Positions 5,414 through 59,509 of a DNA stretch of 64,000 bases are shown in pieces. The notes below the pieces were generated by a model. That model made no database searches, was not told the DNA's origin, and saw nothing but the letters and a program-made list of their open reading frames with translations. The position numbers were made by a program, and so were the translations under genes. Source of the stretch: Candidatus Gastranaerophilales bacterium (lineage in GTDB: Bacteria > Cyanobacteriota > Vampirovibrionia > Gastranaerophilales > Gastranaerophilaceae); assembly GCA_944324395.1 (NCBI GenBank), contig CALUWC010000005.1, positions 32,366 to 96,365 on the forward strand, read 5' to 3'. Positions within the stretch are counted from its first letter, which is position 1; every line of letters starts with the position of its first letter.

Positions 5414-5567
5414 AATAAACTTCCTTTCATTTGATTTGTTTTTACCCTTCTGTTAAATCATGTGAATATTTATAATTGACTTTTTAGTTACTAACATTTA
5501 CATTTCTTAATTTTTACTTATATAAACTCCATTTGTTAAATTAACTAATTAATGATATTCTAATAGT

Positions 5568-18377: not shown

Positions 18378-18406
18378 TTGATAAAATTGTATGTCTTTAT
18401 TATAAT
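18378..18406 (+). promoter_or_regulatory. Sigma-70-like promoter
   Basis: TTGATA(18378-18383), 17 nt, TATAAT(18401-18406), upstream of the 18439 gene. Confidence 0.5.
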
Positions 18407-30758: not shown

Positions 30759-31040
30759 AATGCTTCTCCTTCTAACAGATTTTATATTATCACAAAATTT
30801 TTATTTTTACATACGCTAATACGTTTGGTTTATTTTTTTTGTAACAACTTTACATGATTTAAATAAATCGTTATAATAATTTTGTAGGTATAGTATATAA
30901 TAATTAAATTTTTGTAAAGTATTCTTAACAAAAGTTTAAAAAAGGTTTTTATTTAGCAATCCTTGTAACACAATATACTTACAAGATATAGTATTATATA
31001 TATAACTAGATATATGTTAACATAGAAGGTGAATAAAATA

Positions 31041-38661: not shown

Positions 38662-38787
38662 ATCATTCCCCCACTACCTTATAAATGTTTTCCAATCGTA
38701 TAATACGAATGAATAAATTTTTTTGCTATTTTATGTGAGATCCATTAACAAAATGTTACAATAAAGCAACTTTATTATCCCATAATT

Positions 38788-41766: not shown

Positions 41767-43083
41767 TTAAAATTCATAGTTGCTTGGATTTTTAAGAGTT
41801 ACATTTGTGAACCCGTCAGCTGCAATTTGTTGTCTGATTTGTTCTGCTATATCTTTTCTTGCGTTTGTAGCGTTCCAGCTAGCTCCGGTACTTGCCGTGT
41901 ATGTATGAACTCTTCCTGTTGAATCTGTAAATCTAGCTACACCGGATCCTTGGTTAAGACCCATTGTATGGATTTTAAATGTAATTGTTGCGGTGTACGC
42001 TTTAGTTTTATTTTGTCTTGTAGCTTCTTGAGTATTGGAAACTTTCTTTTCAGTTTGAGCTCCTGTCGTTTTTGATTTGTATGAAACTTGGGCTCCGTCA
42101 TACTTTTTGCTTCCTTCTTCAACATATTGTTTTCTCAGATAGTCAATGCTTGGTAAATCTAATTTGTCCCAGTTAGCATTAGCTTTTATTGAGCCATCAG
42201 CGTTGAATATACTCGGGTTGTAGGAAATCATTTTCTTTGTTAAGTCTGCTCGGTCCGTTGCACTTAAGAAATCCATTTTACCGCCGGCACTTAATAGTTT
42301 ATCAACAACTGCTGCAGCACTGTCGCATTTAGAAAGCTGTAAGTGGATGTTTTCATTTCCTGTTTTAGTATCGGATCTGTACCAGCCATTAGCTACATGT
42401 ACTTTACCTGTTCCTGAACCTTCGCCAGTTCCAGATGCGTTGCCGGCTTTTGTATTTCCGTTGTCTGAAGGAGGTACGGCTGCTTTTTCTTCAGTTGGTT
42501 TGTTTCCATCAGGCTGTTCTGTTGGCTTATTTCCATCAGGCTGTTCTGTTGGTACATTCTTTTCAGGTTCTTCTTCGGCTTTAGGTCCTTGAGGTTCTTC
42601 TTTCTTGTGTTTTAGTAATTTATCGCACATTTCATCGAAGTTGCCTTCTTCATGTATGGTTTGATCTTTATTAACAGCATCATAATGTCCGTTTCCGTCT
42701 GAGGTTATAACCCAATCAGGGAACATTTTCTGCAGGTCAGCAAGTCGGTCGCCTTTTGGCTGATTTTGAACAGGCATTTGTGCCTGGTTTATCATTCCAA
42801 ACGGACTCATGCCCATACCCATGCCCATACCGCCGCCAAATAATCCGCCGAACAATCCGCCGCCGAACAGTCCGCCGCCGAACAGTCCGCCGAATAATCC
42901 TGACATAAAGCCCCAGAATCCTGTAGGTCCGTTATTTATGGTTACATTTGTTGTTTTTGTAAAAGATGAACCGCCTAACATTACTGGCCGTCCGCCTCTT
43001 ACATTGACGTGTGGTCTTCTTGAGTATTGTCCGCCCATTACGTAGCGGGTGTTGAATGCTTTACCAAATCCGTAAATGCCCAT
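41767..43083 (-). CDS. Hypothetical 438-aa protein with Gly/Phe/Met low-complexity segment and tandem repeats
   Basis: ORF with AAGAGGA SD. GLFGGLFGGGLFGGGLFGGLFGGGMGMGMGM, 2 x PTEQPDGNK, and a C-terminal globular region. Confidence 0.75.
   Translation of the reverse strand: MGIYGFGKAFNTRYVMGGQYSRRPHVNVRGGRPVMLGGSSFTKTTNVTINNGPTGFWGFMSGLFGGLFGGGLFGGGLFGGLFGGGMGMGMGMSPFGMINQAQMPVQNQPKGDRLADLQKMFPDWVITSDGNGHYDAVNKDQTIHEEGNFDEMCDKLLKHKKEEPQGPKAEEEPEKNVPTEQPDGNKPTEQPDGNKPTEEKAAVPPSDNGNTKAGNASGTGEGSGTGKVHVANGWYRSDTKTGNENIHLQLSKCDSAAAVVDKLLSAGGKMDFLSATDRADLTKKMISYNPSIFNADGSIKANANWDKLDLPSIDYLRKQYVEEGSKKYDGAQVSYKSKTTGAQTEKKVSNTQEATRQNKTKAYTATITFKIHTMGLNQGSGVARFTDSTGRVHTYTASTGASWNATNARKDIAEQIRQQIAADGFTNVTLKNPSNYEF
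42496..42549. repeat. Tandem 27-nt coding repeat (2 copies, 24/27 identical)
   Basis: TTGGTTTGTTTCCATCAGGCTGTTCTG / TTGGCTTATTTCCATCAGGCTGTTCTG, encoding PTEQPDGNK twice on the minus strand. Confidence 0.85.
42808..42902. repeat. Imperfect short coding repeats (CCGCCGAACA[A/G]TCCG and CATGCCCATACC units)
   Basis: Encode (GLFGG)n and (GM)n on the minus strand. Confidence 0.8.
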
Positions 43084-43102: not shown

Positions 43103-43143
43103 ATACTTTATATATATAAAGTATATACTATTTAGATAATTGC
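43103..43143 (-). promoter_or_regulatory. Shared upstream element, site S5, with perfect 20-bp palindrome
   Basis: Minus strand reads GCAATT-N19(...ATATACTT)-TATATA. Palindrome TACTTTATATATATAAAGTA at 43104-43123, about 20 nt from the 438-aa gene start. Confidence 0.65.
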
Positions 43144-43301
43144 TTATATACCCTCGTTTTTGTTACATATCTTTACAATTGCAAGGAGTATATTATCGTG
43201 GAAAGTCTTTGGTGGTCTTAGTTTTTGGTTTGTTGTAAAAATAAGCAGAGTTGTTAAAATTTTTCTAACCTCTCTGCTTATTTTTTAGTTTACTTTATTT
43301 T

Positions 43302-50892: not shown

Positions 50893-53800
50893 GTGAAAGT
50901 AAATTTTGATTTAAAAAAGGACAAGGTTGATAACAATAAACCGGTTTCATTTGAAGGGCATAAGTTTGTAAAATCTGATCGCGGGCTTCGTCAGTTTGAA
51001 TTTTCTTACCCGTATGATGAAAACAGAGATAAATGCTATATTGAGATTTATAAACTTGATACAGATCGTTATGGTAATTATTTTTCTACCGGCAAAGCTT
51101 ATTCCCGTAAGGGTGCTGATAAGCTGGAAGTTAAACCGGGAGTTAATCGTGTTGATTTAGCCAGAACTTTTGGTATTGAAGATAATCAAGCATTTGCTTA
51201 TCACTTTTTACTTGTTGATAAAAAGACCGGTTATACAAAAACCAGAGTTGATGCCGGTGAAGTTATTGATGAACGAAATCCTGCTAATCAAAATCGTAAT
51301 ATTTTCAACGTAGTTGTTCCTACAAAATCAAGTTTATCCAAGGGCGGAGCAATGAAACTGGTTATTATTGACTCCCAGAAAGTCGGTTATGTATATAATG
51401 ACCAGAATATGATAGTCCGAGATGAAAAGCTGGCCTCACGTGGGGAAAAAGGTATAAAAACGATTGCTAATAAATTCGGCGGTACTATTGCCGGGTTGGA
51501 ATATGCAATTGATAAAGGCGAATATGATAAATATGCCAGAATAATTTCATTACCGATTTTTACTGATGATGATTTTTCTGCACACGCTTACTGGAATAAA
51601 AACTGTATGCAGATGGCAAGTTCTCTCGGTAATATCAATAATTATGCATCTTTGCAAAGAAAAATGTTTGCTCATGGTTTGAATTTTGTATCTGATGGTG
51701 CATTTGTTAATGAGGGGCTTGAAGGTGTTCACTTCAAACACTTATTAAAATGGGGTGATGAATCTCCGTACTTAAATTGGTTTAGAGCTTCCGGAATAAA
51801 AAATAATCCGTTATCTCTTGGTGTATTTGTAAAAAATAAAGATTTCATTTCTCATAAAATTGTAAACTCTCCATATCGTTATTCTCAAAATAGAATGGGG
51901 CATGTTTCTATTAAGAAAAATCATGAATACAATCCAAAGAAACCTACATATATTCAATTCTTTGATACCAGATTGGTAACTGAAGAAGAACGTAATGATC
52001 ATAAATCTTTAATTAAAACTTATTCCGTAATGAGTACTCCTAATGTATATGACTTACATTCTCATAATGATTCAGTATTTCCTTATTATTTTGAAATCGA
52101 TCCGGAAGTATATAATAGTAATATTAAAAACTTAAATAAATATAATGATATCAATCCGGATAGTACGATTTCTATAACCAGTCCGAAAGGTGCTCGTTTC
52201 TTATCAAAATTCAGAAACTTTATGGTAGAAGGTAAATATGAAAGCGGATTTGAAACATGGGATGCAAACCCTGATATTGCAAAGTTGAATTTTGTATTCT
52301 CAAATGCCGATACTAAAGCCTTAAAGAATCTTCCTGTTGATGAAAGAAAACGTGAAATGCGGAAAATTATCAGAGGTAATTTCCAGGTTCAAGACTATGC
52401 AATTTCATCAGGTCAGTATTGGACGGCTAAAACTGATGATATTTTGCGTTTGTATATTGCACAAAGTTTGAGAAGTGTTGATGTAGAAAATCCTTCTAAA
52501 GTTTATAATCAGATTATGAATTTGTCTGATAATAAGATATTCCCTAAAATTTTAAAGACAGAAGTTTCTAAAGATGAAGTAGAAAATGTTATAGAAGGTA
52601 TTTATAGTAATAAGCGTAAATTATCCAAAGAGGACAAAAAGTCGCAAATTTTGGAAGGATTGATGAATACTCCGCTGGATTCTTTCGAATTTGGCGATAA
52701 TATAGTTTCAGTTCTGGCTTCTCCATTAATATCCAAAAGAGCGGTTGTAGCTTCAGAAGTTGGAGTTCCAAGGTATCAAATATATAAACAGGGTAACAAA
52801 CATTTATCTCCTGATTATAAAGATACATACGAAGAAATGGATAATATTTATACACATGAAATGTCAGATTTTGCAACTACGGTTTTAGATACTGTCGATT
52901 CTGTCCTGCCGGCTGACCGAAAATTGTTTGACGGAGATCAGGTTACTGAATATGGTAAGTATGTTTTGCCGTTGATACTTCCTATGATTGCAAAATATGC
53001 GGTTATCAAATCTTTAGATCCTGATATTACGGTTGCAATAAGTTCTTCTAACGGCGAAATGTCTTATGATTATAAGGAATTGAAAGAGTTATCGCTGCAG
53101 GGTATCGGAATTTTAAATCCTGCATCTCCTAAAGATGAGGCTCAAATGCTTCTCCGCCGTATAAAGAAAGGTATGACAAAATTAGATTCTTCTATTGACG
53201 GAGAAATGGTTGAAGCAATTGTAAGAACTCTTAAAGATACAAATGTTGAGAGTTTCAAATTAGCTGATTTGATTATTGATAAGACTCAATCCGGTTTGGA
53301 TTGGAGAATTGATGCAGCTAAAGATATCGCTGATGTTGAAGCTTTACGTAACAAAAATACAAATTTTGATTATACGTGGCGTCAAGTTATCGGCTTTTGG
53401 AAGAAATTTGTGCAAGGGGTTGTTGCTATTAATCCTAATGCTTATACTGTTGCAGAGGTTACAGATGAAATAAACTTGCATGATCGTGGTTATGGTGCAA
53501 ATTCAAGAAAATTCCCAAATCCAAATTATGATATTCTTGCAAAATTCCAGAGAGAAACCGGCATGACATCTCTTGCTAATTATAAGCACTGGTTTAGATT
53601 AGTTTCAAAATTGTTCGGTAAAGATTTTGAGGACGGTTCATATTTTGATAAGAGTACAGATGCACAAAAAGCTGTATATGATAAAATGATTGAATTTATC
53701 AGATCAGGCGGTTTAGATTCTGTTATGTATGCTTATACTTTTATCGGCAACCACGATAAGCCAAGAGCTTTGCATTGTGCAGCTTTAGATATGTCTTTGT

Positions 53801-55041
53801 TCTATTGTGATTTGAACTATGTTGAGGGCAGGGCAAACAGACGTAAAGCTTATCAAATTATAAAGGATAAATTCTTAGAACCTATTTCAGATTCTGAAGT
53901 CGACAATTATGATTTTTCTGCAGTATCTCCAAAAGCTATAGCAATGGCAGATGCTATAAGACCGGCTTTTGTTAATGTATTGAATAAATACAGAGAAAAA
54001 TATAAAGATCAATTAGGAACAGAAGAACAGTTTAATAGAGCGTTTGTTCCTATCAGTAAAGCAATTTCAGATTTAGCTCAGGGTATCTATATGGGTAAAC
54101 GTTTTGACCCTGATGCATTTGGTGTTAAACCTATAGATGTAACAATTTCTATGGTGTTGAAACAGGCAAGAACTCAGTATGGATTCCAATTGCCGCCCGG
54201 TGCTGATTCAAAATACGAAGATGAAGTCTTTGAGGCAGTTATGAAACCTGCGTTATCAAAAGTTCTGGCTATGATGAAATATCTTGTAGCTCTTCCGGGT
54301 ATGCCTACTTTATTTGACGGTGATGATGTCGGAGCTACAGGTTATGACCCTAAAACTAAAAATATGTACTTGCAGGGTCGTCAAAGAGTTCATGATGAAT
54401 GGCTGGATGTTACTGATGCTACAAAATATAAGGCCTTTATTGCAAAATATAAAAAATATTTTGATGAAACAATGGCAGTCAGAAGCAATCCGAAATGTAA
54501 CGCTTTGAATAACGGTGCTGTATATGTTCTTCCGTTGCAAGAGTCTAAGGAACATGTTAAAGTTCCTGCAGTATTTAGACAAAGTACAGATGGAAGAATG
54601 GCAATTTCCGTATTTAATACATCCGCTCTTCATACTGACCACAGGCGTGAATACAAACAAGATGATATTGTTTTGGATTCTATAAAACTTAACTTTGAAA
54701 CTCAAAAAGATAATGACGGAGCAGATAAAACGGTTTATGTTGACGGTGATGCCGGTGTCGGTATTCCAGGACTGAAGCCGGGAACTGTTTTTGTTAATGC
54801 TAAGAATGAAAATGATAAATATTATGTTAACGAACTTGACGGCAAGTATTTCATTAAACATGGATCCGGTGATGGTTCTATTACGTTGAATGATAGTACA
54901 TTGATATTGTATTCCGTACCAGAGGGTACTCCGCTTACATTTACGGGCAATTTGAACTTTAAACCTAATTCCCGTTTTGTTACTAATGCATATCAAAATA
55001 AGACGGATGTTTGCGGACAGAAGTTAGCTTTAATTAAATAA
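50893..55041 (+). CDS. Giant (1382 aa) GH13-like glycoside hydrolase with large internal insertion
   Basis: GGTIAGLEYAIDKG...ISLPIFTDD, DGAFVNEG (region I-like, aa ~268), GLDWRIDAAKD (region II, aa ~807), AEVTDE (region III, ~855), IGNHDKPR (region IV, ~955). GTG start after AAGGAG. Confidence 0.75.
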   Translation: MKVNFDLKKDKVDNNKPVSFEGHKFVKSDRGLRQFEFSYPYDENRDKCYIEIYKLDTDRYGNYFSTGKAYSRKGADKLEVKPGVNRVDLARTFGIEDNQAFAYHFLLVDKKTGYTKTRVDAGEVIDERNPANQNRNIFNVVVPTKSSLSKGGAMKLVIIDSQKVGYVYNDQNMIVRDEKLASRGEKGIKTIANKFGGTIAGLEYAIDKGEYDKYARIISLPIFTDDDFSAHAYWNKNCMQMASSLGNINNYASLQRKMFAHGLNFVSDGAFVNEGLEGVHFKHLLKWGDESPYLNWFRASGIKNNPLSLGVFVKNKDFISHKIVNSPYRYSQNRMGHVSIKKNHEYNPKKPTYIQFFDTRLVTEEERNDHKSLIKTYSVMSTPNVYDLHSHNDSVFPYYFEIDPEVYNSNIKNLNKYNDINPDSTISITSPKGARFLSKFRNFMVEGKYESGFETWDANPDIAKLNFVFSNADTKALKNLPVDERKREMRKIIRGNFQVQDYAISSGQYWTAKTDDILRLYIAQSLRSVDVENPSKVYNQIMNLSDNKIFPKILKTEVSKDEVENVIEGIYSNKRKLSKEDKKSQILEGLMNTPLDSFEFGDNIVSVLASPLISKRAVVASEVGVPRYQIYKQGNKHLSPDYKDTYEEMDNIYTHEMSDFATTVLDTVDSVLPADRKLFDGDQVTEYGKYVLPLILPMIAKYAVIKSLDPDITVAISSSNGEMSYDYKELKELSLQGIGILNPASPKDEAQMLLRRIKKGMTKLDSSIDGEMVEAIVRTLKDTNVESFKLADLIIDKTQSGLDWRIDAAKDIADVEALRNKNTNFDYTWRQVIGFWKKFVQGVVAINPNAYTVAEVTDEINLHDRGYGANSRKFPNPNYDILAKFQRETGMTSLANYKHWFRLVSKLFGKDFEDGSYFDKSTDAQKAVYDKMIEFIRSGGLDSVMYAYTFIGNHDKPRALHCAALDMSLFYCDLNYVEGRANRRKAYQIIKDKFLEPISDSEVDNYDFSAVSPKAIAMADAIRPAFVNVLNKYREKYKDQLGTEEQFNRAFVPISKAISDLAQGIYMGKRFDPDAFGVKPIDVTISMVLKQARTQYGFQLPPGADSKYEDEVFEAVMKPALSKVLAMMKYLVALPGMPTLFDGDDVGATGYDPKTKNMYLQGRQRVHDEWLDVTDATKYKAFIAKYKKYFDETMAVRSNPKCNALNNGAVYVLPLQESKEHVKVPAVFRQSTDGRMAISVFNTSALHTDHRREYKQDDIVLDSIKLNFETQKDNDGADKTVYVDGDAGVGIPGLKPGTVFVNAKNENDKYYVNELDGKYFIKHGSGDGSITLNDSTLILYSVPEGTPLTFTGNLNFKPNSRFVTNAYQNKTDVCGQKLALIK

Positions 55042-56186: not shown

Positions 56187-56365
56187 TTATATTTCCTTTT
56201 TCTGATAGCTATTTACTTTATTAATTTTACTTCAAATGCGGTCTAATAAGTAGCCTTTTTTTTTATTGTTAAGTTTTGTAACACATCTGTATATGCTGAA
56301 ATCCCTTCAGGCTTTGAATTTATATTTTTCCTATAATATGTATATATTTTTTAGATATAAATTAA

Positions 56366-56407
56366 TCAATTTTTAAATCTAAAAATACTTTATATATATG
56401 TAAGGGA
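56366..56407 (+). promoter_or_regulatory. Shared upstream element, site S1
   Basis: TCAATT-N19(...AAAAATACTT)-TATATA-TATGTAAGGGA. Confidence 0.65.
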
Positions 56408-56441
56408 TATAAAAAGAAAAAATAATAAAGGGGAAAAGATT

Positions 56442-56612
56442 ATGAGAAATGATTATGAAATGATTACAGTTAAAGATTATGTTGAAAGCTTAAATGATGT
56501 AAGATGTTTAACTGTTGAAGAAAAAGAAATTGAAGCAAGTGTTGAAAAATATTTATTAAGCATTCAAAGAGCTAAAACAAATGAAAAAATCGTTGAAGCT
56601 TTGTTAGCATAA
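56442..56612 (+). CDS. Small protein (56 aa) of the ...ALLA tail family, not in the ORF track
   Basis: My translation: MRNDYEMITVKDYVESLNDVRCLTVEEKEIEASVEKYLLSIQRAKTNEKIVEALLA. AAAGGGGA SD. 33/56 identical to the 57547 product. Confidence 0.7.
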   Translation: MRNDYEMITVKDYVESLNDVRCLTVEEKEIEASVEKYLLSIQRAKTNEKIVEALLA

Positions 56613-56645
56613 TAAAAATATCAAAAATGTTATAATTAAATTTTA

Positions 56646-56674
56646 GGGGACTGATTGATAAAATCAGTCCTTCT
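56646..56674 (+). terminator. Intrinsic terminator
   Basis: GGACTGATT/AATCAGTCC stem followed by a T-rich tail. Confidence 0.65.
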
Positions 56675-56729
56675 CGATTATATGGATCTTTTTGATTGTA
56701 AATTTATGTTAATATTATATATAATTTAA

Positions 56730-56770
56730 GCAAATTTTATATGAAAAAATACTTTATATATGTGTAAGGG
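56730..56770 (+). promoter_or_regulatory. Shared upstream element, site S2
   Basis: GCAAAT-N19(...AAAAAATACTT)-TATATA-TGTGTAAGGGA. Confidence 0.65.
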
Positions 56771-56802
56771 AAATGATATTAAGAGAACAGGGGATCAAGA
56801 TT

Positions 56803-57099
56803 ATGGAAAGCTATTCAGGATTAATGACAGTTCAAGAATATGTAGAGTCAATGAGAAAAGAAAATGAACAAAGAACTACAATGATGACAGCTGCAGATTA
56901 TGCAAAATCTTTAAAGACTCAAAGTGCATTATTTCAAGCTTCTACATTGATAACAGTAAAAGAATATGCTCAAGCTTTAGACAGAGTTAAGTATTCAACT
57001 GCAGAGGATAGAGAAATCGAAAGATCAATCGAACTTTCACTTTCAAAATCCCGTAAAGCCAGAGTTAATGCTCAACTTCTTGAATCTATGTTAGGATAA
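56803..57099 (+). CDS. Small protein (98 aa), same family, with triplicated N-terminal motif
   Basis: ATG 56803 has a CAGGGGA SD, analogous to its paralogs (track start 56773 lies only ~13 nt after the TATATA box). Ends KARVNAQLLESMLG. Confidence 0.7.
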   Translation: MESYSGLMTVQEYVESMRKENEQRTTMMTAADYAKSLKTQSALFQASTLITVKEYAQALDRVKYSTAEDREIERSIELSLSKSRKARVNAQLLESMLG

Positions 57100-57123
57100 T
57101 TTATATAATTCAATAACAAGTTT

Positions 57124-57160
57124 GGCGGAACTGATTATTTAATCAGCTCCGCCTTATTAT
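57124..57160 (+). terminator. Intrinsic terminator
   Basis: 13-bp stem GGCGGAACTGATT/AATCAGCTCCGCC (1 mismatch) followed by TTATTATT. Confidence 0.7.
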
Positions 57161-57239
57161 TAGCTCCGAATTATTGTCCAGCCTTGTTTTTGAATTGTAA
57201 CATTATATTAAGATTATATACTTTTTAAGTAAAAAATAG

Positions 57240-57280
57240 GCAATTTTTTATAGAAAAAATACTTTATATATATGTAAGGG
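57240..57280 (+). promoter_or_regulatory. Shared upstream element, site S3
   Basis: GCAATT-N19(...AAAAAATACTT)-TATATA-TATGTAAGGGG. Confidence 0.65.
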
Positions 57281-57314
57281 GAATACTAACAGGGAAAAAT
57301 AAAAGGAGAAAAAT

Positions 57315-57503
57315 ATGGCCAGAGTATTAATTTCAATGCCTGAAAAATTTTTAAATGAGATTGATTTAGTAGCAGATTCTGAAAATCGTACTCGTTCTGA
57401 ATTGATTAGAGAAGCTCTCAGAACTTATATGTACAGATCTCAAGTTCGGAATGGTAAAAAAGCTGTTACTAACGCAGAAATTTTAGATGCATTACTTGGT
57501 TAG
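57315..57503 (+). CDS. Ribbon-helix-helix (CopG/Arc/MetJ-type) DNA-binding protein with the family tail
   Basis: RVLISMPEKFLNEIDLVADSENRTRSELIREALRTY is a typical RHH. Tail KAVTNAEILDALLG. AAGGAG SD. Confidence 0.8.
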   Translation: MARVLISMPEKFLNEIDLVADSENRTRSELIREALRTYMYRSQVRNGKKAVTNAEILDALLG

Positions 57504-57546
57504 ACTTGATGTATTCAGCAAGAATTTAAAATAAGGAACAGGGGAA

Positions 57547-57720
57547 ATGAAGAATAATTATCAAATGGTTACAGTTAAAGAGTATTTAAGTATGCTTGAT
57601 AATGATGTTAAGTACTTAGATACTGATGCTCAGGAAATTAAAGCTAATGTTGAAAAATATTTATTAAGTATTCGCAGAGCTCAGACTAATGCTAAAATTC
57701 TGGAGTCACTACTGGCATAA
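57547..57720 (+). CDS. Small protein (57 aa), same family, not in the ORF track
   Basis: My translation: MKNNYQMVTVKEYLSMLDNDVKYLDTDAQEIKANVEKYLLSIRRAQTNAKILESLLA. CAGGGGA SD. It starts 43 nt after the RHH gene. Confidence 0.7.
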   Translation: MKNNYQMVTVKEYLSMLDNDVKYLDTDAQEIKANVEKYLLSIRRAQTNAKILESLLA

Positions 57721-57794
57721 TAAAGGTTTTGAAAAAAAAGAACTTCTAGGATTATAATTCCACTCGGTAAAGATTAAGAAAGTAATGTAAGTAA

Positions 57795-57829
57795 CAAAAA
57801 ACCTGATATTTAATATATCAGGTTTTTTG
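57795..57829. terminator. Bidirectional terminator (small-gene array / tuf)
   Basis: AACCTGATAT/ATATCAGGTT stem flanked by A6 and T6 runs. Confidence 0.85.
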
Positions 57830-57855
57830 TTTGTATTTTCTAATATTGTTAGAAA

Positions 57856-59064
57856 CTATTCAATAATAGTATCAACAACACCAGCACCAACAGTTCTTCC
57901 GCCTTCACGAATAGCAAATCTCATACCTTGTTCGATAGCTACCGGAGCGATCAATTCAACTGTCATAACAACGTTATCACCAGGCATTACCATTTGACCG
58001 TCAAATTGGATTGAACCGGTTACGTCAGTTGTTCTGATGTAGAATTGAGGTCTGTAACCTGGGAAGAATGGAGTGTGACGTCCGCCTTCTTCTTTTGTTA
58101 ATACGTAAACGTTAGCTGTGAACTTAGTGTGCGGATGAATTGAACCTGGCTTAGCCAAAACTTGACCACGTTCGATTTCAGTTTTATCAACACCACGAAG
58201 TAAAGCACCAATGTTGTCACCAGCTTGACCTTGGTCAAGTGATTTTCTGAACATTTCAACACCGGTAACTGTAGTTTTCTTAGTAGGTTTAATACCAACT
58301 AATTCAACTTCATCACCAACTTTAACAATACCACGTTCAACACGACCTGTAGCAACAGTACCACGACCAGTGATTGAGAAGATGTCTTCAATCGGCATCA
58401 AGAATGGTTTGTCTAAATCTCTAACAGGATCAGGGAAGTATGAATCTAAAGCATCCATCAATTCCCAAATTTTATCTGTCCATTCATTTTCTCCTCTTTG
58501 GATATTAGGATTAGCTTGAACTGCTTCTAAAGCTTTCAAAGCTGAACCTTTAATGAATGGGATATTATCTCCGTCAAATTCGTATTGAGAAAGTAATTCT
58601 CTAACTTCCATTTCAACAAGGTCTAATAATTCAGGATCATCAACCATATCGCATTTGTTTAAGAATACAACAAGGTTAGGAACACCAACCTGTCTAGCTA
58701 ACAAGATGTGTTCACGAGTCTGAGGCATAGCACCATCAGTTGCTGCAACTACAAGAATTGCACCATCCATCTGAGCTGCACCTGTAATCATGTTTTTAAC
58801 ATAGTCAGCGTGGCCAGGGCAGTCAACGTGAGCATAGTGTCTTTTGTCTGTTTCATATTCTACGTGAGCAGTAGAGATAGTAATACCTCTTGCTTTTTCT
58901 TCAGGAGCAGCATCGATTTCATCGAATTTCTTAGCATCTGCTTTACCAGCTGCTGCTAATGTACCGGTAATTGCTGCTGTTAATGTAGTTTTACCGTGGT
59001 CAACGTGGCCGATTGTACCTACGTTAACGTGCGGTTTCGTACGTTCATACTTTTCACGTGCCAT
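57856..59064 (-). CDS. tuf: Elongation factor Tu
   Basis: Full-length EF-Tu ([18 protein letters not shown]) with the cyanobacterial-type insertion [21 protein letters not shown]. Confidence 0.97.
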
Positions 59065-59236
59065 GAGATTAATCTCCTTCTTTTTTGTCTACTATATAAT
59101 ACTATACACTTAGTATCTTACGATATCTCTTATTCTATATGCTCATAATTTTTTGTCAACATTATTCGCTTATTTTGATACATTCTTTTAATTTTTCTTG
59201 TATTGTAAAGAAATGTAACAATATTTTTGTTTTTAT

Positions 59237-59277
59237 GCAATTTGCTCATTAAAAAATACTTTATATAGATAAGTCAG
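59237..59277 (+). promoter_or_regulatory. Shared upstream element, site S4
   Basis: GCAATT-N19(...AAAAAATACTT)-TATATA-GATAAGTCAG. Confidence 0.6.
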
Positions 59278-59302: not shown

Positions 59303-59509
59303 ATGACCACCGAATTTTCAATTTCAAAAATATCAGGATCAGCAGTTAATAAATTAAATGATTGGGCAGATGGCACAAGAAATTATTTTACAGCACAGCA
59401 GAAAAAGAAATTTGATTTACCAGATTTGCTGTCCAAGGGTTTAGTTAACCCGGCATCAGCTTCTGCTGCCACTACAGCTACTCAGATGAATAATTTGGGT
59501 AATATATAG
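59303..59509 (+). CDS. Hypothetical 68-aa protein
   Basis: ORF with GGAGGA SD. Preceded by S4 and followed by a hairpin. Confidence 0.6.
   Translation: MTTEFSISKISGSAVNKLNDWADGTRNYFTAQQKKKFDLPDLLSKGLVNPASASAATTATQMNNLGNI

Follow-up and report, generated by a model that had tools for sequence, protein, structure and literature searches.

The 64,000-nucleotide stretch of DNA analyzed here (the window), from a Candidatus Gastranaerophilales bacterium, carries several transcription units that are preceded by copies of one composite sequence element, which we call S1 to S5. S1 lies upstream of a 56-amino-acid (aa) open reading frame (ORF) (small ORF 1; 56442..56612, + strand), and S2 lies upstream of a 98-aa paralog (small ORF 2; 56803..57099, +) in which the unit TV(K/Q)EY occurs three times. 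S3 heads an operon composed of the gene for a 62-aa ribbon-helix-helix (RHH) protein of the CopG family (57315..57503, +; PF01402, E value of 2e-7) and the cotranscribed small ORF 3 (57 aa; 57547..57720, +), which ends in TNAxILExLLA. S4 precedes a 68-aa gene (59303..59509, +), and S5 precedes the gene of a 438-aa Gly/Phe-rich protein with no evident signal peptide (41767..43083, −); neither product had a family match. The four small genes driven by S1 to S3 belong to one superfamily. The RHH gene had been described as the only regulator-like gene under the element, a view that can no longer be held because the three small ORFs are also RHH related (hhalign, 87%, E value of 4e-6). The tail TNA(K/E)(I/L)(L/V)E(A/S)LL(A/G) is common to the C termini of all four proteins and could be a shared docking or degradation signal. 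A FlgM-like anti-sigma role for the small ORFs was considered and rejected: a profile search of PDB sequences and Pfam returned nothing of this kind, and the ORFs are RHH related instead. The RHH protein has 2297 homologs, the top 120 of which are at least 79% identical to it, and its mean column identity across 10 species is 89%, versus 46% for the adjacent small ORF.

S1 to S5 align without gaps as (G/T)CAA(T/A)T (i.e., GCAATT, GCAAAT, or TCAATT), 13 nucleotides (nt), and ATACTTTATATA. Positions in this core are counted from the C of CAATT; in S1, the C is at 56367 and the core extends from −2 to +37. The cores are located at 56365..56404 (S1, +; TCAATT), 56729..56768 (S2, +; GCAAAT), 57239..57278 (S3, +; GGCAATT), 59236..59275 (S4, +; GCAATT), and 43105..43144 (S5, −; GCAATT), and in each of them the hexamer is followed by 17 nt and TTTATATA. 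The 16-mer AAAAATACTTTATATA occurs exactly four times in the window. With up to two mismatches allowed, five matches were found against 0.6 expected, a number reached in 0 of 100 shuffles. Because a matrix trained on the window would have been circular, an independent matrix was built from 115 sites in other genomes only. S3, S1, S2, S5, and S4 scored 47.1, 41.6, 39.5, 35.8, and 28.4 bits with this matrix, respectively, and the best matches in shuffled 64-kb windows had a mean of 11.2 bits and a maximum of 22.8 bits. A chance origin of S1 to S5 is excluded.

The earlier note on this DNA, which had been made from the sequence alone, had listed six such sites. Five of them stand, and the sixth does not: S6 (19788..19827, −) scored 4.0 bits with a window-trained matrix and 11.1 bits with the independent matrix, i.e., at chance level. 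Orthologs of its gene pair were absent from the related loci that we fetched (loci and contigs are cited below by L numbers), so that orthology offered no rescue. S6, which has a weak 12/16 copy of the upstream repeat described below at −34, is therefore unsupported as a member and at most a possible degenerate copy. Another possible degenerate copy (30954..30995, +; GCAATC, 13 nt, ATACTTACAAGATATAG) scored 8.9 bits, which is without statistical support; 14/16 HLR1-like repeats lie at 30901-30942, and a gene for a ShlB/FhaC-type transporter lies downstream.

The spread of the core was assessed by scanning one genome per species, for 185,579 species, with the pattern CAAWT-N13-ATACTTTATATA. At least 120 stretches matched, and 112 among the matches listed carry the features of the composite. 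The element is specific to the order Gastranaerophilales, a group of gut bacteria related to cyanobacteria but non-photosynthetic, from which almost all hits among the matches listed originate: 43 of 80 listed titles name Gastranaerophilales, Melainabacteria, or Cyanobacteria metagenome-assembled genomes (MAGs), and the rest are mostly gut or rumen MAGs. Several of the matched contigs are syntenic with the window at 72 to 87% nucleotide identity, which places the window in this order as well. The complete composite was also seen on contigs filed under other taxa, namely, L021, L026, and L036 (Acinetobacter sp.), L011 and L025 (Muribaculaceae), L074 (Brachyspira), L079 (Clostridium), and L032 (Eubacteriales). 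L036 is 72% identical to the flhA region of the window, and the composite-bearing contigs under unrelated taxa are probably mis-binned or mislabeled.

Columns that the search pattern did not force are conserved as well. Among the 112 sites, G occupies −1 in 90, A occupies +16 in 106 and +31 in 98, and a purine occupies +33 in every one (112/112); a pyrimidine at +32, TTT at +5 to +7, and R-R-G at +35 to +37 complete this pattern. The control, viral contigs with mostly chance matches, had G at −1 in 20%, a purine at +33 in 48%, and an HLR1-like repeat of at least 13/16 in 7%. Orthologs of the RHH gene were fetched by protein identity, blind to the motif; in all of them, the composite preceded the ATG by about 74 nt. 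The RHH promoter had the motif in 8/8 species examined, in each of which the gene is a regulon member. In an alignment of this promoter from seven other species, GCAATT and TTTATATA were invariant and the 13-nt interval was not conserved; ATAC was replaced by TTCC or TGTT in two lineages. A further 17 nonexact sites of at least 18 bits were found in 828 kb of related DNA, versus none in shuffles, with ATAC again variable. Their density is about 1 per 49 kb, and the 64-kb window holds five exact copies. Orthologous S4 sites are present in L030 and L137. Across ten strains of the species represented by the window, 24 of 453 non-motif intergenic positions were variable, versus 1 of 207 positions in the repeat and core, and the S1 core had no strain single-nucleotide polymorphisms.

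A second module was revealed by aligning the 130 to 200 nt upstream of the genes. The block TTGnATTGTAAAgAnATGTAAC is common to S2, S4, and S5 and lies about 17 nt before GCAATT; the earlier note had overlooked it, and the promoter module with repeat and core is about 95 bp, longer than stated there. HLR1, to which RpaB, a light regulator of cyanobacteria, binds, is an 18-bp tandem repeat with the consensus KTTACAWW-N2-KTTACAWW and an activating window of −45 to −66 (PMC6525291, PMC13421787). Judged by its sequence, the upstream module is an HLR1, which by itself does not make the sites members of the RpaB regulon proper. The only perfect (16/16) HLR1 matches in the 64 kb belong to S4 and S5. 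The S4 repeat (ATTGTAAAGAAATGTAAC; 59202..59219, +; reverse complement GTTACATT-TC-TTTACAAT) has its start at −36, in the interval that separates the 68-aa gene from the divergent tuf gene. The S5 repeat (43162..43179, −), which reads GTTACATA-TC-TTTACAAT on the + strand, starts at −37 relative to its minus-strand core. At S2, a 15/16 repeat in reverse orientation (ATTGTAAATTTATGTTAA; 56695..56712, +) starts at −36, and at S3, a 14/16 repeat in reverse orientation (ATTGTAACATTATATTAA; 57194..57211, +) starts at −47, one helical turn further out, which is a recurrent satellite position of the repeat. A 15/16 repeat in reverse orientation also lies about 100 nt upstream of S1 (56265..56282, +), outside the usual register, and its link to S1 is uncertain.

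The same arrangement recurs in the 115 sites from other genomes. A repeat of at least 13/16 is present in 98 of these, versus 14% of shuffles, and a repeat of at least 15/16 is present in 37, versus 0.1% of shuffles. The repeat occurs in either orientation and ends about 15 to 17 bp before the core. The start is at −33 (±1) in forward copies and at −36/−37 in reverse copies, with satellites 10 to 11 nt away. Pattern-free k-mer counts recovered GTTACA/TGTAAC (13-fold), GTAACA (15-fold), TTAACA, and TTTACA, which were enriched 9- to 15-fold with a dominant spacing of 10 bp. The center of the repeat would lie about 58 to 62 bp before the predicted transcription start, and its span of about −50 to −70 would overlap the −45 to −66 activating window. 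Two more 15/16 HLR1-like repeats in the window (5487-5504 and 38745-38762, both +) are intergenic and have no recognizable GCAATT/TTTATATA core. In L012 and L033, an HLR1-like repeat lies 15 nt upstream of a TTGACA-17-TAACAT promoter. The perfect S4 copy stands between the S4 core and the divergent tuf promoter (TTGACA-16-TAGAAT; 59159-59132, −), 42 nt from the −35 element of tuf, which is not the usual register. The repeat may serve other promoter types as well.

The sites behave as promoters. A ribosome-binding site and start codon follow 10 to 60 nt downstream of 63 of 97 sites (mode, 20 to 40 nt), versus 2 of 97 in the opposite direction. The distances that the earlier note gave from the window sites to their start codons were correct. 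In the shortest leaders, the ribosome-binding site begins at +33/+34 (e.g., TAC[A]AGGAG...ATG), so that the start can be no later than about +33. ORF-less units of 55 to 170 nt with strong terminators at their ends follow more than a dozen sites; they are candidate small RNAs and match no Rfam family. An RNA leader or riboswitch was considered and rejected: tRNAs were the only Rfam matches in the window and 16 related loci, with no leader or riboswitch family among them, and leader sequences are not conserved. Short public contigs with RHH homologs, examined for transcript 5′ ends, were ordinary metagenome contigs, not transcripts. Ordinary promoters exist in the window, as previously noted, at 216-245, at 21932-21959 (−), and at 18378-18406 (TTGATA-17-TATAAT), and canonical promoters were not enriched in the region according to a consensus scan (16 observed versus 17.2 expected). 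The proposal that the sites form a distinct, non-canonical promoter-type class that heads separate units and defines a regulon was upheld: the element occurs throughout the order before numerous genes that are unrelated to each other, with a single orientation and a short, fixed distance to the start codon. We are highly confident that these sites are promoter elements and that their regulon spans the order.

The core consensus is GCAATT-N17-TTTATATA, in which a nonconserved 13-nt stretch is followed by ATAC and TTTATA(TA), and conservation in the 112-site consensus ends about 8 nt past TATATA. The earlier note had measured 19 nt between the upstream hexamer and TATATA. That distance is correct, but as a spacer it is a product of choosing TATATA as the box: the blocks invariant across orthologs are GCAATT and TTTATATA, which gives a standard 17-nt spacer to TTTATA. 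A conserved pyrimidine-purine step lies 5 to 6 nt past TTTATA, and transcription would start at this Y32-R33 step, which corresponds to −2/−1 if the start is at +34; if the start is at +33, R33 is the first transcribed base. In transcript coordinates, GCAATT would then occupy −35 to −30 with a 17-nt spacer, ATAC would occupy −16 to −13, the place of an extended −10 element, and TTTATA (core positions +22 to +27) may be taken as the −10 hexamer at −12 to −7. The predicted starts are at about 56400-56401 (S1), 56764-56765 (S2), 57274-57275 (S3), 59271-59272 (S4), and 43108-43109 (S5). The arrangement of GCAATT, 17 nt, and TTTATA is present in all orthologous promoters, within the 16- to 18-nt range of hexamer spacers.

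Neither hexamer resembles TTGACA or TATAAT; the invariant block at the −35 place is GCAATT. Housekeeping sigma factors need an A(−11)/T(−7) pair, which is missing from every register of TTTATATATA: A and T take turns in the stretch T22 T T A T A T A T A31, so that any A has an A four bases downstream. From these two properties we infer that a non-housekeeping sigma factor reads the core. A canonical promoter within the repeat was also considered, since TTGTAA from the repeat was coupled to TATAAT/TATACT at S2 and S3 in the consensus scan. This candidate was rejected: the A-rich interval before GCAATT has no conserved TAnnnT in the 112 sites, and the scan gave no excess over shuffles.

The position of GCAATT can be compared with that of the −35 element in a second promoter class. 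In five of seven credible sigma-28-type promoters (TAAAGTTT-N11-GCCGATA) of the same genomes, an HLR1-like repeat starts 35 (or 45 to 46) nt before TAAAG. GCAATT is thus positionally equivalent to a −35 element, and the repeat is a shared upstream module for at least two kinds of core promoters. A loose sigma-28 pattern showed no excess over shuffles, and the strict pattern alone is informative. In the window, a sigma-28-like sequence (TAAAGTTTTTAACGATTTTACGAAA) lies at 22049-22073 (−) upstream of a 350-aa gene (20828-21880) and is followed by a partial core copy with one mismatch and no GCAATT block (AAAAATACTCTATATA; 22024-22039, −), which the earlier note had overlooked. Homologs of the 350-aa gene in L024 and L035 have clear HLR1 plus TAAAG...GCCGA(C/T)A promoters. 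Canonical promoters coexist with these classes, such as those of tuf (TTGACA-16-TAGAAT) and of a sigma gene in L096 (TTTACA-17-TATACT). Searches with phmmer, using Escherichia coli PhoB and FliA queries, found neither RpaB nor a second group 3 sigma factor in the window or the fetched loci; the matches were single-domain receivers, NarL-type regulators, a single FliA, and a single group-2-like sigma factor, none of them linked to the motif. The group-2-like sigma gene has a canonical promoter of its own (TTTACA-17-TATACT).

The gene content of the regulon is diverse. The 102 downstream proteins examined, from about 100 genomes, make up more than 70 families. The majority match no Pfam or NCBIfam model and lack an obvious signal peptide, and low-complexity sequences (Gly/Phe/Met/Asn/Pro rich) are frequent. 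Some contain LysM plus glycine-zipper, L,D-transpeptidase, transglutaminase-like, or EF-hand domains, and others have HExxH motifs (read by eye). Products in L011, L016, L049, L020, L106, and L026 carry domains that are usual outside the cytoplasm (LysM, L,D-transpeptidase, transglutaminase-like, and HExxH metalloprotease-like domains), and all lack an evident signal peptide, a hint of export by a route other than Sec. In one lineage (L134-L136, 1498-4180), the gene order is fliA-[motif]-RHH-small ORF-flhB, where fliA encodes a FliA/WhiG-type sigma-28 factor (TIGR02479, 235 bits), and the window itself carries flhA, fliH, fliF, and fliE. A tie of the regulon, or of its RHH mini-regulators, to flagellar control or motility is suggestive only.

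ORF-less units and phage genes were also found downstream of the element. One family of units (family A; L045, L074, L081, L112, L114, L109, L093, L040, L102, and L036) is CA rich and contains ACACGAGG...CACACTTCACAC. Another (family B; L009, L034, and L100) is CU rich and contains CUCUCUCUCUUAAUAUCCUCGUGUUU; a further ORF-less unit is located in L096 (1247-1310). The two families have a 12-nt perfect complement in common (AAACACGAGGAT/ATCCTCGTGTTT), and family B is complementary to AAGAGAGAG leaders that are frequent in the mRNAs of the regulon. These small-RNA families of related genomes are absent from the 64-kb window. On five phage contigs (L157, 5662-6010, −; L150, L162, L185, and L225), the full composite drives a single 96-aa gene (MLFTT...RKRSLQQVMxESFFxGANRFGNNFIA) that lies on the opposite strand inside the structural module, where the portal, capsid, and tail genes are on the + strand. 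The composite promoter could mark phages whose hosts belong to this order. Elsewhere in the window, a 1382-aa ORF (50893-55041, +) has no Pfam match, and its position next to ychF is kept in related genomes (1354 to 1382 aa, L121-L139).

On the basis of the observed conservation, architecture, orientation, register, and gene content, we propose a two-module, activator-dependent promoter class in which an RpaB-type regulator acts on the repeat and a non-housekeeping sigma factor acts on the core, with a probability of roughly 0.6. A Gastranaerophilales homolog of the OmpR-family regulator RpaB, or a close paralog such as RpaA, would bind the upstream repeat and recruit RNA polymerase in the manner of a class-I-type activator, and a non-housekeeping sigma factor would read the GCAATT-N17-TTTATATA core. 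The predicted output is a set of short-leader transcripts for a large, fast-evolving group of genes: RHH-family small regulators (including all four at S1 to S3), low-complexity or effector-like proteins without signal peptides, small RNAs, and phage single-gene inserts.

Several points weigh against this proposal. S1 lacks an in-register repeat (the best in register is 12/16), and the repeat of S3 is displaced outward by one helical turn. The ATAC block is the least conserved part of the core and is variable in pattern-free samples (TTCC, TGTT, AAAC). The 115 training sites were gathered by an exact pattern and say nothing about how well its 17 forced bases are conserved; for this reason, we relied on the unforced columns, orthologs, and controls. 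The start site, and hence all −35, −10, and −60 coordinates, is derived from geometry and leader lengths. The sole sigma genes in the fetched DNA were one FliA-type and one group-2-like gene, and none that would read the core was found there. OmpR-family paralogs (RpaA and others) likewise bind 10-bp direct repeats, a point that bears on the identity of the predicted activator.

A first alternative is that these are housekeeping-sigma promoters without a usable −35 element that depend on two factors, a repeat-binding response regulator and a protein that binds GCAATT (and/or ATAC) in place of −35 recognition, as T4 MotA does at phage middle promoters. An AT-rich, −10-like sequence of the TATATA type is present, GCAATT is short and invariant as the half-site of such a factor could be, and no dedicated sigma factor was found in the fetched DNA. 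We nevertheless regard this alternative as unlikely, since the A(−11)/T(−7) pair is offered by no register of TTTATATATA, GCAATT lies exactly at the place of the sigma-28 −35 element relative to the common upstream repeat, and the invariant blocks have the standard 17-nt hexamer spacing.

A second alternative, which we rate as slightly less probable still, is that the core serves chiefly as an operator to which the RHH protein (57315-57503) and/or its small paralogs bind; these would autoregulate and repress or gate the regulon. RHH proteins commonly autoregulate; the RHH protein is unusually conserved (89% versus 46%), and its own promoter has the motif in all species examined. This alternative is compatible with a promoter reading and does not exclude it. 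The earlier note had pointed to a 20-bp palindrome in S5 (TACTTTATATATATAAAGTA; 43104-43123) as the sign of a dimeric DNA-binding protein. The palindrome is real, but it is unique to S5 and gives no such sign, because its right half is not conserved in the 112 other sites, where positions 30 to 37 read T-A-Y-R-n-R-R-G. The 112-site consensus has no symmetric half and lacks the direct or inverted subsite repeats used by RHH dimers-of-dimers. The conserved blocks instead fall on the −35/−10 geometry, and the element also serves phage single-gene inserts and small RNAs.

Two further explanations are very improbable. The sites could be alike only because a cassette of gene and promoter was duplicated locally in tandem, or because they belong to a dispersed or mobile repeat that has nothing to do with transcription, and S1 to S3, which precede tandem paralogs, may be duplication products; this explanation is contradicted by the unrelated genes after S4 and S5, the more than 70 unrelated downstream families in about 100 genomes, the strong bias in orientation and start-codon distance, and the absence of terminal repeats or duplicated flanks, and only the two modules, rather than the body of a mobile element, are conserved, with variable flanks and a variable 13-nt spacer. 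The core could also be the promoter of a phage-type single-subunit RNA polymerase, given that (A/T)ATAC...TATA followed by a purine start is loosely like T7-class and mitochondrial promoters, that the conserved 16- to 17-nt stretch ends at a purine, that some sites read TATATAAGTA, and that the element is present on phage contigs; however, the separate GCAATT −35 block and the activator-type repeat in common with sigma-28-type promoters point to a multisubunit enzyme, the element on phage contigs drives one oppositely oriented small gene rather than phage modules, and no gene for such a polymerase was seen.

Homologs of RpaA, RpaB, and NblS are retained in Melainabacteria and Gastranaerophilales; since 2013 it has been noted that these non-photosynthetic bacteria keep such "light" regulators with no known role (PMC3787301, PMC4040986). 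The HLR1-type site, found in a fixed register at more than 100 promoters, supplies concrete, testable targets for the role of the retained RpaA, RpaB, and NblS. A joint reading, which we regard as possible but doubtful, is that gut Melainabacteria kept and rewired the NblS-RpaB/HLR1 circuit. Together with a dedicated sigma factor for GCAATT-N17-TTTATATA, this circuit would run an order-wide program of about 50 to 150 promoters per genome that links flagellar late (sigma-28) genes, RHH mini-regulators, fast-evolving effector-like proteins without signal peptides, and anti-Shine-Dalgarno small RNAs, and phages would tap it by single-gene inserts. If true, it would be the first RpaB function outside photosynthesis and would allow expression in an uncultured lineage to be predicted from sequence. 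In Gastranaerophilales MAGs, the composite can serve as a precise signature by which small proteins, small RNAs, and transcription units are annotated. It can also reveal mis-binned contigs and tie phages to Gastranaerophilales hosts, and it points to a large, coregulated group of proteins, unannotated and possibly secreted, in a gut lineage that is common but resists cultivation.

Among known systems, the HLR1/RpaB promoters of Synechocystis PCC 6803 and Synechococcus PCC 7942 are similar in their unit of 8 plus 2 nt with a 10-bp period and in the placement of the repeat upstream of the core, where it would overlap the activating window at the predicted start. They differ in that the host here is non-photosynthetic and has no photosynthetic target genes, and in that the half-site here is relaxed (TTAACA and TTAAGA are common). 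The repeat here also occurs in both orientations with a 3-nt shift and is coupled to a fixed non-canonical core, as well as to sigma-28-type promoters; binding by RpaB is putative. The sigma-28 (FliA) flagellar promoter, TAAA-N15-GCCGATAA, has the same two-block design of an alternative promoter, and the HLR1-like repeat is equally far from TAAAG and from GCAATT. Its blocks are unrelated to those of the core (GCAATT/ATAC-TTTATATA), which does not contain TAAA-N15-GCCGATAA, and true sigma-28-type promoters are a separate class.

The SigJ J-Box promoters of Nostoc punctiforme (GGGaAtacT; PMC6495340) also come from a cyanobacterial lineage and, as here, have an extended −10-type block with (A/T)ATACT and a regulon on the order of 100 promoters of motility or surface genes. 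The element described here differs in having no G trio (+13 to +15 are A rich), a replaceable ATAC, and a strong −35 block, which is weak in the J-Box; furthermore, AATACT as the −10 element would put the start 3 to 4 nt upstream of the Y-R step. Phage morons are autonomous promoter-gene-terminator inserts in prophages, and the single 96-aa gene, on the opposite strand and with its own composite promoter in five phage contigs, resembles them. This likeness concerns the use of the promoter rather than its origin, and most copies of the element are chromosomal. The searchable literature yielded no account of this promoter class. We regard the element as a lineage-specific promoter class of a non-photosynthetic host in which the core is paired with a conserved activator site of cyanobacterial type.

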